Of a stretch of DNA of 64,000 nt, positions 2,797 to 52,689 are shown piece after piece. The DNA is from Balamuthia mandrillaris. Lineage: Eukaryota. Each line of letters begins with the position of its first letter. Positions within the stretch are counted from its first letter, which is position 1. The position numbers and the translations under genes are program-made. The stretch covers positions 1 to 64,000 of the forward strand of contig JAVKOQ020000058.1 of the NCBI GenBank assembly GCA_031835245.2. Direction: 5' to 3'. Below the pieces are notes generated by a model. It saw nothing but the letters and a program-made list of their open reading frames with translations. It was not told the origin of the DNA and ran no database searches.

Positions 2797-3627
2797 TCAC
2801 ATTTCTTCTTCATCCGGTCCGTTGTCTCCTCTGTACAAGTATTCGTTTCCCTCCTTTTCATCCTCCTCCTCTTGATCCTCATCAGCGATCAATTCTGCAT
2901 CATCCCACAACTCGTCCGCTTCTTCGTCTTCTTCGAACACAGCCTCTTCGCCTTGTTCGTCACCTTCGTTTTCAGCTTCCCCCTTTTGAACTTCTTCTAA
3001 CTTTACCTCCAACTCCTCTTCCAGCTCTTCCAACTCCTTCAACTCTTCCTCCAACGTTTCATAGTTTTGCTCCGCTGATAGTTTCTGGTCGAACTCCTCT
3101 TCCGTGTCCTTTATCTTCTCCAACACTTGGTTCAACTTCTCTTCCACCTCTACCATTTGGGCGTCCAAGATGTCGTTCATCTCCTTTTCCGCTGGCTCGT
3201 ATTCTTCCAGCTCCAACAGAATCTTTTCTAGCTTCTCTTTCATCTCTTCATATTCTTCTTCCTTTTCTACCAGCTCGGCGAGCTCCTTTTCTAAAGCTTG
3301 TCGGCTTCTCTCGGCTTCCATCCAGGCCAATCGATGCATGCTTACACTCTCTGCCTTGGCGTTGTCAGGCTTGTCTGCATCTTCCGCTTCCTGAAGTTTG
3401 GCGGCGGAGGCCTGGGCCATCCGCTGCTTGAGCAGAAGGTGCCCACGAACGACCTTCATCTTCTCCGCAATGGTCAGATCCACGGGGGAAGGCACTTTGG
3501 CATGCTCCCCGCCGTATCCCTCCGGGAAATCGGGCTTTTTCTTTCGAAACGCCTGTCCAGAGGGAACCAGCACAAGTACAACGCACACCAGGCCAAGAAA
3601 CACCCGCAGTTGCCACAAGCTCGCCAT
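2797..3627 (-). CDS. Secreted or ER-lumenal acidic coiled-coil protein of unknown function (intronless)
   Basis: 276-aa ORF with an N-terminal signal peptide (MASLWQLRVFLGLVCVVLVLVPSGQA), a long E/K/L heptad region and an acidic tail. Confidence 0.75.
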   Translation of the reverse strand: MASLWQLRVFLGLVCVVLVLVPSGQAFRKKKPDFPEGYGGEHAKVPSPVDLTIAEKMKVVRGHLLLKQRMAQASAAKLQEAEDADKPDNAKAESVSMHRLAWMEAERSRQALEKELAELVEKEEEYEEMKEKLEKILLELEEYEPAEKEMNDILDAQMVEVEEKLNQVLEKIKDTEEEFDQKLSAEQNYETLEEELKELEELEEELEVKLEEVQKGEAENEGDEQGEEAVFEEDEEADELWDDAELIADEDQEEEDEKEGNEYLYRGDNGPDEEEM

Positions 3628-3905
3628 AACGATGCAACGCTTTGCTCTTTTCTTCTGTTTAAACAGAAAATAAAAATTTGTTGTTCGAAGCGGCGCCTCT
3701 GCCTTTTCCCGTGGTGACGTGGATTGTTTTTCGTGTCGTCATGATAATATGTTATTTTCGTACCCGTCGTGTCGTCCTTGGAAATTTGATATCTGTCGAC
3801 AAACACACGTCATCCCTTTCTTTATCAGAATATTCGTCGAAAGTATTATCCCGAAGTTCAACCTATTAGGTAACAAACACACACCAAGAGAAGATCGAAA
3901 ATAAA

Positions 3906-46114: not shown

Positions 46115-46642
46115 ACTTACCACAACGGTTGGCTTTAAGAAAAACTCAGCATTCGTTTACTTGTCACTTGGGTGCAACGTGTGGGAAGGGGCCGGTGGAG
46201 GCAGCTCTGGCTGCAACACAACAGCTCCCACCACAACGAAACCAAAAACAAAAAAAAAAATCATCACCTGCGAGAGTCGAACCGCGCGGGTTCAGATCGT
46301 TGCGCTTCGGAGGCGGAAAATTACCCAGCGGGTCAGGCGGTCCCAAGCAGGACAGATCGCCACGCATTCCCGCCACCGACCACCCCCTTTCGGAAAAGCG
46401 AAAAAAGAAGAAAGTCGAACGAAGTTTGCTCTCTCTTCTCTCTCTCTTCTCTCGTGCTCCCCTCTGTATCAACGGTAACCGACCACCAGTTCCATGCGGA
46501 AGGAATAAGCAGATTATTATCATTATTTTTATTTCTGTAGTGTGGTGCAAGTGCAGCCCCGTAGCCATCCCTCTCATTTTTATATTTAAAAAAAAAGAAT
46601 TGTTGAATCTGAAGAGAGAGAGAGAGAGAGAGAAAAGTAGAA

Positions 46643-47446
46643 ATGCAAAGCGAACGGAGCAAGGCACAAAGGCGCAAGGCGGAGGAGGCGCGTCAGAAGC
46701 GCATGCAGGAGCAGCGGGAGAGGATGGAGCAGCGACAAAAGGCCGCTCGCGACCAGTACCTCAGCGACATGGCCCGCAAGGTGGCGCACTACCGAGCGGA
46801 CGTCCAGCAGGAGGTCCTTGCCAGACGACCCGACTGGGTGCCCGACTCCAAGGCTCCCCATTGCATGGCCTGTTCTGCCAAGTTTGTGCCCGTCTTTCGT
46901 CGGGTACTCTTTCCTTACCCGTTGTTGCTCCTAGACCCATCTCCCTTTCTCATCTCTTCTCTGCTCACTTGCAAAAAAAATAAACAAAAGAGGCATCACT
47001 GTCGATCCTGTGGCAGAGTGTTGTGCAAGCAGTGTTGCTCCAACTGGAAGGTGCTGCCCGAGCTCGGCTACTTTGCCACCCCGGTGCGCAGCTGCAACGA
47101 CTGCCACAGACAAAGGGAGGGCACCCCGGGCTCGGCCTCTGTCTCCACCCAACCAGCGCTGCAACAGCTGGCACAGAGCACTGGCGGTGCCCCAACAGCA
47201 ACCTCCAAAAAGGAGACTGCTGCTGCTGATTCTTCTTCTTCTGCTTCCTCTTCTGCTTCCTCTTCTTCATCTTCACGGGCCAATGCCAATAGCAACAGCA
47301 GCAATAACAAAGGGAAGGGAAAGGAGGAACACCATGAGGAAGATACCGGCGCTGGTATGAGGATGCAAGTGGTAGCGGCCAACTCCGAGGAGCAGAACTT
47401 TTCATCCTCCTCTGCCACGGAAGGAGAAGAAGAAAAGTTGGGTTGA
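46643..47446 (+). CDS. Small FYVE zinc-finger protein
   Basis: WVPDSKAPHCMAC...FRR|RHHCRSCGRVLCKQCC...VRSCNDC after an N-terminal coiled coil. Confidence 0.92.
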   Translation: MQSERSKAQRRKAEEARQKRMQEQRERMEQRQKAARDQYLSDMARKVAHYRADVQQEVLARRPDWVPDSKAPHCMACSAKFVPVFRRVLFPYPLLLLDPSPFLISSLLTCKKNKQKRHHCRSCGRVLCKQCCSNWKVLPELGYFATPVRSCNDCHRQREGTPGSASVSTQPALQQLAQSTGGAPTATSKKETAAADSSSSASSSASSSSSSRANANSNSSNNKGKGKEEHHEEDTGAGMRMQVVAANSEEQNFSSSSATEGEEEKLG

Positions 47447-47646: not shown

Positions 47647-48612
47647 TTAGCCAGGAGGCCAGTTCATCTGCCTACCACCCAACACGTGAATGTGCAACCA
47701 ACGAACGGACTGCTGACCCAACAGACCATCGTTGATGACTACACGATAGCCTGAACGGTGAAGTCCTTGCTTGCGGGCTTGTTCCTTTGCCACATGCAGC
47801 AGATGACCCAACAATGCTTCGTCCTCATCTTTTGCATCCGACAAACCTTGCAAATAGAAGAGCAGTAGGTTAGAAGAGGAACAGAGAGAAGAAGAACAAG
47901 AACAAGAACAAGAACAAGAACAAGAACAAGAACAAGAACAAGAACAAGAACAAGAACAAGAACAAGAACAAGAACAAGAACAAGAACAAAAAGGAGAAGA
48001 GAAGGAAAGAACGAAAGAAGAGGAAAGAAGCAAGCAAAACGAGGAGAAATCAAATAGAAGAGGAACGGTAAGTAAAACAGAAGGCATACTAGCAATGGGC
48101 TTTTTAGGGATCACCAGAAAGTGGAGTGGGGCCTTGGGGGCGATGTCCAAGAAGGCCATGCACCGGTCATCCTCGTAGAGAATATCTGCGTTCACCTCTT
48201 TGGCCAGTATCTTGGCAAACACTGTCTCATGTGGTTCTAGCTTCAGCTGGGCGTGAGAGAGAGAGAGAGAGAGAGAATGAGTTTTTGTTGGTTTGAGCCA
48301 AACGAAAAAGAGTGAGTGTTGTTTTGTTTTTACAGCTGCTTTGGTGGCAGCAGCCTTGCTGCCTTCCTTGTCATTGCTCCACAACGACCGGGTGCTGCTG
48401 AAAGAACGTAGCGGCAGGAGCAAAGGTGCATCCGACCGACGACGGCAAGCCCTCAACGCAAACGTGCTGGTGGTGGTTGTTGAGGCAGCTCTACTGCTAC
48501 TATGCCGGAGTGCCGAAAGACGTTGGGGTGATGAGGACGCCACGGAAGAGACCTCCCACAGGCCTTGCCAAGTGCCTGGTCCTCCACAACGCAAAGCGCT
48601 TCTTTGGAGCAT
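47647..48612 (-). CDS. HINT: Histidine triad nucleotide-binding protein (HINT2-like, mitochondrial presequence)
   Basis: TVFAKIL.KE...ILYEDDRCMAFLDIAPKAPLHFLVIPKK, GYRVVINDG..GQQSV and HIHVLGGRQMNWPPG. Confidence 0.93.
   Translation of the reverse strand: MLQRSALRCGGPGTWQGLWEVSSVASSSPQRLSALRHSSSRAASTTTTSTFALRACRRRSDAPLLLPLRSFSSTRSLWSNDKEGSKAAATKAAVKTKQHSLFFVWLKPTKTHSLSLSLSHAQLKLEPHETVFAKILAKEVNADILYEDDRCMAFLDIAPKAPLHFLVIPKKPIASMPSVLLTVPLLFDFSSFCLLLSSSFVLSFSSPFCSCSCSCSCSCSCSCSCSCSCSCSCSCSCSCSSSLCSSSNLLLFYLQGLSDAKDEDEALLGHLLHVAKEQARKQGLHRSGYRVVINDGLLGQQSVRWLHIHVLGGRQMNWPPG
47893..47990. repeat. Intronic (AAGAAC)n microsatellite
   Basis: Directly visible. Confidence 0.9.
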
Positions 48613-48882: not shown

Positions 48883-49629
48883 ATGGATTTGCTGCAACGG
48901 CCGAGCCATGTCATCACGGACGTTACCGATGACACCCTGCAAGACCCTCTCATCGAACGTATTTTACAGAGAGTGCGTATTGCTCTCCTGTAGGTGCACT
49001 TTTTTTTTTTTTTTTTGTAAAGCTTATTGTGCCAATTCTTCTCATAAAAAAAGGCGTTTGTGCTCTCTGGAATCTCTGGCAGCGAAGTGCTGGTGTTGGT
49101 CTATGTCCGGGGAAGCCTTCGCTGCTTTGCCTCTCGCAAGCTGAAACCCATGTTGGATGACAAGGGAGGACGCACTATGATCGGCACTCTGCTCGTCAAG
49201 AAAGAAGAGAACAAGGAGGACAAAGACAAAGGCGACGTCGTCGAGCAAACAACAACCACAGAACAAAAAAAGGAAGAGGGAGAGAAGGAACCAGAACTAT
49301 CCGCAGAGGAAAGGGAGAAGTTTGAGAAACACAGAGAGAAACTGCTGGAAGGCTTCGAGGAGGAGGACCTGGAGAAAGTCTCCTTCATCCAACAGCCCGA
49401 CCAGAGAGAAAAGGAGTTCAAGGCTCGCCTGGCCGCCCTGATGCAAAAGCTGAGGGACATCTCCGTCCAGTCCTCCCTCCCGGACGCCCTCTACAAGGCC
49501 GAGGTCTTGCTGCTGGTCGCCACCCCATCGCACCAGGTGGCCACGATGGCCACCCCGAAGCTCAAGCCCATCATCACCACCGAGCAAGGCAAGAAGCTCA
49601 TCACCACGCTGCTCAACTCTTCCATCTGA
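48883..49629 (+). CDS. Protein with two tandem degenerate SRF-type MADS-box domains (2 exons, about 221 aa)
   Basis: Intron 48973-49053. Both halves align by eye with the SRF/Mcm1 core: ILQR|AFVLSGISGSEVLVLV...CFASRKLKPML and LMQKLRDIS...AEVLLLVA...TMATPKLKPIITTEQGKKLITTLLN. Confidence 0.75.
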
Positions 49630-49875: not shown

Positions 49876-50459
49876 TCAAGCCTTGCCAGCCATCTTCCTG
49901 CCCAAGTCCTTCATCCTGTCCATGAAAGACGCCAACGGCGCCGCCATGGTGTTCCAGGGCGGGGTGTTGGGTGCGCTGGGGTGAGGGTGCGTCGGGGCCA
50001 TGGGCTTCAGCGTCTCGATCAGGGAGCCCATGTCCTCCAGGTCCTGCGCTCCCATCCTCTGCTTGAGCACCTCAAAGACCTCCCCTTCCTCCTCCTCGAT
50101 GTGGTGGAGGGTCTCCTCCTTGAGCTGCTTGAAGGTGGCCATGAACTCACGGTCCCCCACCCGGTCGCTGGGCGTCTGGTCCAGCTTGTAGAGCGCGTCC
50201 TTCATTCTCTGGTGCTCCGTCAGGGAGCGGTCGGCCAGGTCGGGCTTGCCGGAGATGTTGCGGAGGGCCGGGTAGAGCACCTGCTCCTCCAACTCGGCGT
50301 GCTTGCTGAGGTTTTCCACCAGCAGCTGCAGGTGCTTGGAGATCTCGTTCTGGTCTTTGGCGTTCTCGATGCTGGAGAACAAGCGTTTGACTGGGCATGT
50401 TTGGTTGGGCGGAGTTCTTTCAGCCTAAAGAGCATGGAGAAGAAGAAGAGGAGAGAGAA

Positions 50460-50669: not shown

Positions 50670-51067
50670 TTCTTTTTCCTCTTTTTGTGTGTTTTATTAT
50701 TATTGCAATCTCCTTCCACAAACTCGGCTTTTTGTAGTTGGCGGAAGAAAACATGCGGAGAAGCCAAAGGCAAATGGCTCCATGGGGGGGGAAGGGGACC
50801 AGTTGTACTACTTTCGTTGTGCTTTCTCAGGAAATGAAGGCCGCGTGCCATCGACTTGCTGCTGATTTTCTTGCTGCCTTTGAATCATCAGCTCTTCACC
50901 TTTCCCTTTTTTTTTTGTCGAACAAAATGGTCGGCATAAATGCTCCAAGTTTCCGTCGACAGTAATGTGTCCGCAACAAATAAAATTCTGTCGACGACCC
51001 GCTACCTCGTAGCCGGTTCAATCGATCTATTACGTTGCAAACAGAAGGAAAGAAAAAAAAATAAAAA

Positions 51068-52689
51068 ATGCAACGAAGAACGACCACACGCCGACAAAGA
51101 CGTAGCAGCGATGCTGCGCAGGTGCTCATACGATACGAAGAAGAAGCAGAAGAGGAGGAGGAGGAAGTGGTGGTGGAGGAGGAGGAGGAGGAAGAGGGCG
51201 TGAGTGATGGTTCGGACTTTGAATGGGGACACGAAAACCGAAAACGCGCCACAACGACTGCGCCCAGACGAAGAAAAAGTTGGCCACAACAAAAGAGGCC
51301 AAAACGGAGTAGCAGCAACTCCAGGAAAACCAAAGTCAAGAAAGGAGCAGCAGAGAAGGGAGAAGAAGAAGAAGAAGAAGGAACGGCTGTGGATGAGACC
51401 CTTCTTCGGTGGGATGGTTTGGAGGGTGCAGCTGCAGCGGAGGCCCATCGGGGCGTGCATGCGGTGCTTGTGGGGCTGTATGGCAGGCCGGAGCCCCGGC
51501 AGGACCCAGAAGGAGGGAGCAGGAGCAGCGCCAATTGTTGTGGGCGCAAAGAAACGGTGTTGGAAGCGCTCATCAGCATCGTTCTCTCCCAAAACACTTC
51601 GGATCGCAACAGCAGAGCGGCTTATCGTGGCCTAAAGACCCGTTTCCCATCTCCCGCTGGCAACGAAGAAGTGAAAGAGGAAGCAAAAGGGAAGACCAGC
51701 GATGCGACCGCTAATGCCAACCAAGCAAAGAAGAAACGACTCCTCCCTGTGAAGAAGGAAAAGAAAGAGGATGGCGAAAGCGAGAACTACACAGAAACTA
51801 AAATAAAGGAAGAAGAAGAGGAGGAAGATGACAAACGGAAGGTGAAAGTGAAACAAGAAGCAAGCACAACGATCGACATGGAGGCCGTTCGCCTGAGCAA
51901 GGTGGAGGACATAGAGGACGCCATTCGTCCTGGAGGTTTGGCCAAGACAAAGGCCAGACGCATCAAAGCGTTGCTGCAGCAGATCCATGAAGAACGTGGA
52001 GGAAGTACCAGCTTGGAGTTCCTGAGGGACATGCCAACGGAGGCGTTGAAGGAGTACTTGCGGAAGTTTGATGGAGTTGGGCCAAAGACCATTTCTTGTC
52101 TATTGTTGTTCACGCTATGTCGAGACGACATGCCGGTGGTAAGTTATCCTTTCTCCTGCCGTCTATTATTCATCTGTTTTCATCGTTCCTCTTACTCCAT
52201 TATTCTTTATTTTCGTTCTTCTTCATTCCTTCTCCCACTCCTTCTCCTTTATATTACTGTTTCTATCTTCTTCGTTGTTATCAACAGGATACTCATGTGG
52301 CAAGGGTTTCTCGGCGATTGGGGTGGGTCAAACACAATTCCTCTCGAGAGGGCACCTATGAGCATCTAAACCGACACATGCCCGATGAGCTAAAATACGA
52401 CCTTCACAACCTTCTAATTGCTCATGGACGAAAGCTGTGCAGGTCGTCTAATCCTATTTGTGAGCAATGCCCTTTAAGGCAACAACATTGCTTGTATTAC
52501 AAGCACGCTATCGAAGGAAAGAACGACAACAGCTCAAGAAAAAAGTCACAAATGATACGACTGGATGAGAACTACTTCAGGTCTGCTTTGGCACAGATTG
52601 AAGAAAAGCTTGAAGACGAAGAACTGAAACGCAATAAGACCACGACCGTGAAGAAAGAGAGGATAAAACGAGAGAAGAAAGACGCATGA
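51068..52689 (+). CDS. HhH-GPD DNA glycosylase / endonuclease III-like with 4Fe-4S motif
   Basis: LISIVLSQNTSD, IRPGGLAKTKA, FDGVGPKTISC, PV|DTHVARVSRRLG and LIAHGRKLCRSSNPICEQCPLRQQHC. Confidence 0.93.

Follow-up and report, generated by a model that had tools for sequence, protein, structure and literature searches.

MADS domains are seen as DNA-binding dimers of two chains. According to passages of PMC10810270, the MADS domain of SRF also binds partner proteins, for example the B-box of SAP-1, while those of PMC10178880 describe R3 (R143 in SRF numbering) as a minor-groove contact and K23 (K163) as a guanine contact. In passages of PMC3640940, the four MADS genes of Dictyostelium are ordinary SRF- or MEF2-like factors; dictyostelids have four to six such genes, and no tandem form is noted in those passages or in excerpts of PMC6873476. 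Literature matches for two MADS domains in one protein gave a single almond gene (PMC9601849, in part) and a remark on dimers (PMC3017862, in part). Neither 'tandem' nor 'multiple MADS' occurs in the main text of a eukaryote-wide MADS survey (PMC10484287), and no description of a tandem family like the one presented here appeared in the titles and abstract openings of the literature matches listed, in a search of journals outside subscription. The portions of the Balamuthia supplementary text and preprint main text that were searched do not mention MADS or SRF. Here we describe a gene of Balamuthia mandrillaris, lying in a 64-kb stretch of DNA (the window), which encodes two eroded SRF-type units in one chain.

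Gene structure and SRF-type homology of the two units

The first-pass annotation had proposed a tandem MADS gene at 48883-49629, and its coordinates were borne out, from the ATG at 48883 through a GT-AG intron at 48973-49053 to the terminal TGA. Joining 48883-48972 to 49054-49629 gives exactly the 221-aa protein P0003, which NCBI holds as two B. mandrillaris deposits (KAL6061044.1 and KAL6068892.1), both labelled hypothetical protein. The features of the gene are as follows.

48883..48972, + strand: exon 1, codons 1-30, with the N-terminal tail and the shortened alpha-I of unit 1; ATG at 48883; model helix 22-38
48973..49053, + strand: intron, 81 nt, GT-AG, phase 0, at the site equivalent to SRF K171|A172
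49054..49629, + strand: exon 2, codons 31-221 plus stop (TGA)
48946..49197, + strand: unit 1, residues 22-78, across the intron; half-length alpha-I, beta-hairpin and kinked SAM-type helix, without N-terminal arm
49198..49374, + strand: acidic linker, residues 79-137, mostly of low model confidence, with a single predicted helix at 114-128
49375..49620, + strand: unit 2, residues 138-219; full alpha-I with an acidic or neutral DNA face, 7-residue insertion, beta-hairpin and kinked SAM-type helix

Read without splicing, the frame meets a stop after 36 codons. The putative splicing of the intron rests on the NCBI model, on relatives whose transcriptome sequences are intron-free and on the conserved intron site. 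An alternative in-frame acceptor at 48993 was rejected, as it runs into a stop at 49018-49020. RNA-seq fed a published Balamuthia annotation (PMC10471605, in part), from which KAL6061044.1 and KAL6068892.1 may or may not derive. A 219-aa Balamuthia copy, 95-96% identical, carries the name 'putative Serum response factor'. Two Balamuthia versions, P0003 and P0004, differ at about ten positions, seven of them within the linker, and may be alleles, strains or paralogues.

Several other genes were recognised around the locus. A HIT-domain gene (47647-48612, - strand; Pfam E 1e-20) stands head to head with the MADS gene, their likely starts about 270 bp apart; its N-terminus is rich in R, S and A and looks like a mitochondrial presequence, and one of its introns contains an (AAGAAC)n array near 47890-47990. 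On the other side, a hemerythrin HHE-domain gene (49876-50424, - strand; E 4e-18) lies tail to tail at a distance of about 250 bp. Further out are a FYVE zinc-finger gene (46613-47446, + strand) and an HhH-GPD DNA glycosylase gene (51065-52369, + strand). No second MADS-like frame was found within the 64-kb window, which contains four CArG boxes against 3.6 expected, none of them near the tandem gene.

Each half of the protein matched SRF and MCM1 separately among 177,635 PDB sequences, in agreement with the earlier view that the 221-aa product holds two units of SRF/Mcm1 type. With exon 2 as the query, unit 2 matched SRF (1hbx_A, E 9.9e-8) and MCM1 (1mnm_A, E 9e-7), the next match lying at 0.061. 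The 49-aa exon-2 part of unit 1, searched alone, matched SRF at E 8.8e-5 and MCM1 at 0.054, and just three sequences were returned at E 10. The two units are 38% identical to each other over 39 aa (pairwise E 2e-7), and a profile of the family gave E 4e-18 for MCM1 and 2e-17 for SRF, with SEP3 and MEF2 at 2e-4 or weaker. A MEF2-type second helix was not found, as the SRF matches extend through the SAM helix and the MEF2 chains rank below SRF in fold searches. By these results both units have SRF-type MADS-core homology.

The Pfam SRF-TF profile (PF00319), which the first-pass annotation had put forward as a check on each half, scored unit 2 alone, and its 13 bits fall below the cut-off of 26. 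This profile is a weak test of the protein; 10 of the 36 rows of the family alignment described below matched it at E 1 or better, the best at E 1.5e-6. Since the family lies below the cut-off, it would probably be overlooked in surveys of MADS evolution which rely on the Pfam profile. Weak Pfam matches, Phage_tail_APC among them, were rejected as below cut-off, and Pfam found no separate DNA-binding domain in the window protein.

An amoebozoan family and its duplication history

A phmmer search over 1.84 billion representatives gave 151 matches at E 0.001 (the best 150 of 151 being listed), and three word-index searches gave 5, 9 and 28. Of 158 proteins, 36 without the canonical motif and similar to the window protein, some of them fragments, were placed in an alignment (A2). 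Two query pieces, the canonical single-domain proteins, the short fragment P0142 and the tandem proteins P0038, P0043 and P0051 were excluded from it. Six of the 21 rows that were looked up carry an organism name and 15 are environmental sequences. The named members come from Balamuthia (two), Pellita catalonica (Discosea), and Arcella intermedia, Flabellula baltica and Rhizamoeba saxonica (Tubulinea). As the Arcella, Flabellula, Rhizamoeba and Pellita members are each a single Trinity transcript ORF, a single message carries both units in these four species. The architecture, which the earlier annotation had suggested seeking in other protists, is thus present in relatives from both Tubulinea and Discosea, and the gene belongs to an old family across two amoebozoan phyla rather than being a local oddity. 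Acanthamoeba, Dictyostelium and Entamoeba gave no named match, in searches too insensitive and incomplete for this to mean absence.

A metagenome scan reduced 411 pattern matches to three confirmed, near-identical loci (L001-L003); a scan with the subgroup of P0009 gave 29 pattern matches, none of which was confirmed. In the ESM Atlas no cluster of the tandem family was found, the best for P0003 being unrelated bacterial clusters at 0.89, with structure rows below the bar; the relative P0018 reached SRF-TF clusters at 0.81-0.83, which serves as a lead only. A viral structure library gave nothing at E 0.001. At L002, the one locus checked of the three, the neighbours (821-1387 and 3331-3849, both - strand) encode a PB1+ZZ protein (p62/NBR1-like) and a nucleotidyl transferase, and no synteny with the HIT and hemerythrin genes of the window was found there.

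We built a tree of 57 units over 73 columns, made up of 18 first units, 18 second units, 17 of 115 canonical sequences (thinned at 86% identity) and four units from two other tandem proteins. First units formed one side of a branch with support 99/98 and second units with 95/97, values to be read with the few columns, long branches and unsettled bootstrap in mind. Similar subgroups recur in the first-unit and second-unit parts of the tree, one of them containing the three Tubulinea species. A tree constrained to unite the two units of the window protein was not rejected (p-AU 0.063). A leave-one-out profile test is clearer than the tree on the separation of the units: over the shared hairpin-coil-SAM part, each unit scored higher with the profile of its own kind, in 18/18 first and 18/18 second units.

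The introns bear on the same history. L001-L003 each carry a pair of GT-AG introns (phase 0, 55-56 nt), one per unit and both at the site of SRF K171|A172; their junction peptides were constrained by the relatives, and GT-AG ends were then found there. In unit 1 of the window protein the intron lies at this same position; unit 2 is intronless. Among the 188 proteins collected, six canonical SRF proteins have an insert at K171|A172, with V first and K or Q last, and these inserts resemble an unspliced phase-0 intron, as we infer from the protein sequences. The shared site in both units of L001-L003 points to one old gene-level duplication. On the simplest reading of these sequences, an intron-bearing SRF gene would have been duplicated at the DNA level before Tubulinea and Discosea parted.

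The long branches, and the p-AU value for the window's own units, could also be expected of a decaying duplicate or of a gene model that fuses neighbouring SRF fragments. A probable fused model does occur among the matches, namely the yeast protein P0051, which looks like a fusion of ARG80 and MCM1, neighbouring genes in S. cerevisiae. For the window gene, however, this explanation is largely refuted by the family and is almost certainly incorrect: a single exon encodes unit 2, the linker and the greater part of unit 1, four other species have the tandem as one transcript ORF, and the same unit-specific pattern recurs in 18 proteins with both units.

Loss of DNA-contact residues, retained core and predicted fold

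In order to compare the units with canonical SRFs, residues were tallied at ungapped offsets in 115 canonical sequences, 19 first units and 35 second units, P0004 being dropped as a near copy. The residue numbers are those of SRF, and they agree with the structural alignment of model residues 132-219 to SRF 141-221. The canonical set was chosen by its motif at 167-175, and its positions 167, 170 and 171 are therefore fixed by design. R143 is kept in 110/115 canonical sequences, 1/9 first units and 2/35 second units, and the corresponding counts (canonical, first, second) are 113/115, 2/19 and 0/35 for K154, 115/115, 0/19 and 3/35 for T160, and 113/115, 2/19 and 2/35 for K163. K165, present in 115/115 canonical sequences, is kept in 0/19 and 0/35, its substitutes being mostly I, F, V and L. 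In the window protein, units 1 and 2 have D and E respectively in place of R143, and P and A in place of K163. The median net charge over 142-171 falls from +9 (7 to 12) in canonical sequences to -1 (-8 to 0; nine complete) in first units and -4 (-7 to +1) in second units.

The acidity extends beyond the units. The linker of the window protein, 63 aa long with a net charge of -10, is acidic as had been noted earlier, and the poorly conserved linkers of its relatives (27-63 residues) are net negative in 30/30 measured. The isoelectric point lies at 4.7-5.7 in 17/17 full-length family proteins. The earlier statement that the DNA-contact residues are largely lost and the dimer core kept thus holds for the sequence, the family-wide counts and the models alike. 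From the residues concerned, binding to CArG boxes has very probably been lost. Being SRF-derived and yet failing the defining DNA-contact features, the protein is not classed by us as a MADS transcription factor.

A transcription factor of changed specificity, one using unit 2 to read half a site or DNA other than CArG boxes, or one recruited to DNA by a partner, would nevertheless account for some of what unit 2 retains: a full alpha-I, R157 in 35/35, a K or R gained at 162 in 29/35, and R164 in 10/35, the window protein included. One dimerisation domain of NRF1 does contact the DNA backbone (PMC10810270, in part). We consider this highly improbable, since no second unit keeps more than three of the six basic contact sites and 14/35 keep none, against all six in 114/115 canonical sequences, and since the arm is acidic, the linker is acidic in 30/30 and no separate DNA-binding domain accompanies the units. 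Residual contact with nucleic acid through R157 and the K or R at 162 is possible.

The beta-I strand, the coil and the SAM helix are SRF-like in both units: cells identical to the canonical consensus number 57/129 and 114/192 in beta-I, and 101/198 and 152/288 in the coil at 199-207, in first and second units respectively, and L219 is kept in 20/21 and 28/32. The conserved hydrophobic residues may serve folding only.

The erosion is unequal. Unit 1 has lost the N-terminal half of alpha-I, with R157 in 0/19 and a modelled helix beginning near position 163, and unit 2 has the full helix with its basic face lost. Unit 2 of the window protein retains F150-I151, R157 and F161, position 161 being F or L in 35/35 second units. 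Between alpha-I and beta-I, 31 of 34 second-unit rows carry 1-8 extra residues, and the other three are intron read-throughs. Each unit also has positions of its own. In unit 1 these are D or E at 208 (20/22) and K or R at 212 (23/23), and in unit 2 an I-E-D..R..F-K patch, P190 (18/33) and K193 (22/33). T196, Q203 and Q216, polar residues of the SRF cofactor groove, are poorly kept (3/22 and 9/32, 0/22 and 5/32, and 0/21 and 4/32, in first and second units).

AlphaFold2, run without templates on the 36-row alignment, gave the window protein a pLDDT of 81.8 and a pTM of 0.77 (79.5-81.8 over five models), and the Flabellula protein, 24% identical, a pLDDT of 84.5 and a pTM of 0.78. Each unit is modelled as a helix, two strands, a short helix and a helix (unit 1 by DSSP: H22-38, E41-48, E51-56, H62-65, H67-78). 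In both models, both units have a helix, a beta-hairpin and a kinked SAM-type second helix, the arrangement given for the SRF type in passages of PMC10484287. A short hydrophobic-acidic stretch (residues 9-15; 48907-48927, + strand) precedes alpha-I of unit 1. It is common to the closest relatives (P0014, P0033 and L001-L003) and absent from the wider family; two of its residues are modelled as a strand at low confidence, and it could fill an edge strand.

Foldseek ranked SRF and MCM1 chains first to ninth for the window model, with TM by target of 0.77-0.84 and E from 1.4e-3 to 7.7e-3, none reaching 0.001 and the aligned range being unit 2; they made up eight of the top nine for the Flabellula model. 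VIA-align likewise placed SRF first (Z 6.6, rmsd 3.9, 81 aligned; second model Z 7.7, rmsd 6.6, 81 aligned; common-range values), followed by NRF1 and MEF2.

The first-pass annotation had supposed an intramolecular pseudo-dimer, and the prediction agrees to the extent that both units lie in one frame. Unit 2 accounts for less than 40% of the chain, yet pTM is 0.77 and 0.78, which suggests that the units are confidently placed relative to each other. Some of the structural alignments run across both units: the helical hairpins of 1ec5_A (46 residues, rmsd 1.5, model 21-167, Z 3.0) and 8bct_D (47 residues, rmsd 1.8, model 27-139, Z 3.9) span both alpha-I helices, and MHC-like platforms align over residues 38-221 (Z 3.0-3.2). 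We use these solely as a sign that the models pack the units together. AlphaFold2, with alignments of 36 rows, may have copied the SRF and MCM1 dimers of its training by likeness, and the ESM Atlas model of P0003 is poor (pTM 0.36). When unit 2 (132-221) and unit 1 (18-82) were modelled as a complex of two chains, the score was 0.01 against a mark of 0.34, in a run where the alignment went unused and the fold of the partner was uncertain; we weigh it neither for nor against pairing. No single-chain two-unit MADS structure is listed among 48,161 PDB representatives, which is not proof of absence. On the models, a one-chain pseudo-dimer is nonetheless probable.

Single-chain models of this kind place both units in one frame and do not speak to oligomeric state, and they would look the same for within-chain and swapped pairing. 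The units could then pair between chains, as head-to-tail dimers or longer chains, and the poorly conserved linkers of 27-63 residues would allow it. Against this, the shortest of the 30 linkers has 27 residues, as would be expected for spanning a three-layer fold, and we give pairing between chains a slim chance.

Proposed role and comparison with known systems

We propose that the protein is a conserved amoebozoan pseudo-dimer, an eroded SRF-type dimer in one chain, which serves the SRF network as a scaffold or decoy that binds proteins away from DNA; on present predictions we would give this reading a probability of roughly 45%. Within the chain unit 1 would pair with unit 2, the alpha-I helices running antiparallel, the four strands forming one sheet and the two SAM helices lying on top. 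From known dimer geometry, the short alpha-I of unit 1 would adjoin the loop insertion of unit 2, and together they may lock this single pairing. The change from lysine to hydrophobic residues at 165 may help to keep the helices folded in the absence of DNA. A partner, most simply one that canonical SRF also binds, would attach to the conserved surfaces of the coil and the SAM helix, and that partner could be held or presented without promoter occupancy. We favour an off-DNA scaffold or decoy because the surfaces that are kept face away from the DNA and SRF itself binds partners through its MADS domain. The poorly kept polar residues of the cofactor groove weaken the case for a strict decoy, and they allow for a partner other than an SRF cofactor.

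The same pseudo-dimer could also work outside transcription, as a structural or adaptor subunit which meets a partner unrelated to SRF through its family-specific surfaces. This is consistent with conserved positions that differ from SRF (208 and 212 in unit 1; the patch, P190 and K193 in unit 2), with the acidity of the proteins and with the loss of the basic arm and the groove polar residues. We regard it as somewhat unlikely, as the coil and SAM helix have stayed SRF-like in both units over long branches, which is simplest if the partners are common with SRF, and no domain or gene neighbour indicates another pathway.

Scaffold, decoy and dominant negative had been offered side by side in the first-pass annotation, and from what has been described they would not be equally likely. 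Id proteins have lost their DNA-binding residues and kept their dimer surface, and the same combination is found here, with beta-I retained and the basic region gone. An Id-like dominant negative would require one or both units to open and heterodimerise with canonical SRF, giving dimers unable to bind CArG boxes. However, both models hold the units in one confident frame, which suggests that the dimer surface is occupied, and a tethered partner should outcompete a free one. The complementary divergence of the units is fixed, with half of alpha-I missing from unit 1. A closed one-chain dimer without a free surface for a heterodimer makes the dominant negative less likely, and we consider it decidedly unlikely.

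Returning to the off-DNA scaffold or decoy, its fullest form would be a family dating back at least to the split between Tubulinea and Discosea, in which an obligate MADS dimer was fused, made asymmetric and stripped of DNA binding to yield a module dedicated to binding proteins, and which holds SRF cofactors off DNA so as to regulate SRF signalling. On the models, we put this forward tentatively. A conserved family with the dimer fused and DNA binding dropped would indicate that the MADS fold can be kept for another purpose, and would offer a natural protein that separates the protein-binding role of MADS domains from their DNA-binding role. An asymmetric single-chain MADS dimer of 21-25 kDa would also be a handy scaffold for structural work and for one-chain MADS heterodimers. 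The finding settles no long-standing question, and its functional side is inferred.

Among described proteins, SRF, MCM1 and Arg80 and the SrfA and SrfB of Dictyostelium resemble the family in the alpha-beta-beta core and kinked SAM helix, in giving the best sequence and fold matches, and in the intron site. Compared with SRF, MCM1 and Arg80, the family has two units per chain and only half of alpha-I in unit 1, and it has lost the basic arm and K154, K163 and K165; its proteins are acidic, lack a long activation region and fall below the Pfam cut-off.

Two MADS domains in one reading frame are known elsewhere. Almond PdMADS15 is described as one such protein (PMC9601849, in part). Tulasnella P0043 and Paradermamoeba levis P0038 share this arrangement with the window protein, but their own units group together (98/85 and 94/84), which indicates that they were duplicated separately and more recently. 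P0043 retains the majority of the DNA-contact residues, and erosion in P0038 is far milder than in the tandem family. P0038 is a second, apparently independent tandem SRF-type protein of Discosea, and could represent an early step along the same route. In fungi, P0043, P0187 and P0188 (Tulasnella sp.) and P0051 (S. cerevisiae) each contain a pair of near-canonical MADS domains.

A single dimer surface is left free in Id proteins and plant microProteins, which act on a partner, whereas in the tandem family that surface is predicted to be filled from within, and there is no homology between them. In double histone-fold proteins, likewise not homologous, an obligate dimer has been fused into one chain. 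For the use of the fold, a likeness is offered by the dimerisation domain of NRF1 (8k4l), a MADS-like fold which serves chiefly for dimerising (PMC10810270, in part) and which ranked second against both models (Z 4.7, rmsd 2.2, 74 aligned; Z 5.8, rmsd 2.3, 75 aligned). NRF1 dimerises from two chains, has its DNA-binding domain apart and, according to passages of the same paper, shows no evident evolutionary kinship with SRF, whereas the tandem family is SRF-derived, single-chain and without any other domain. By analogy, NRF1 may be taken as a precedent for a MADS-like fold used mainly to dimerise.
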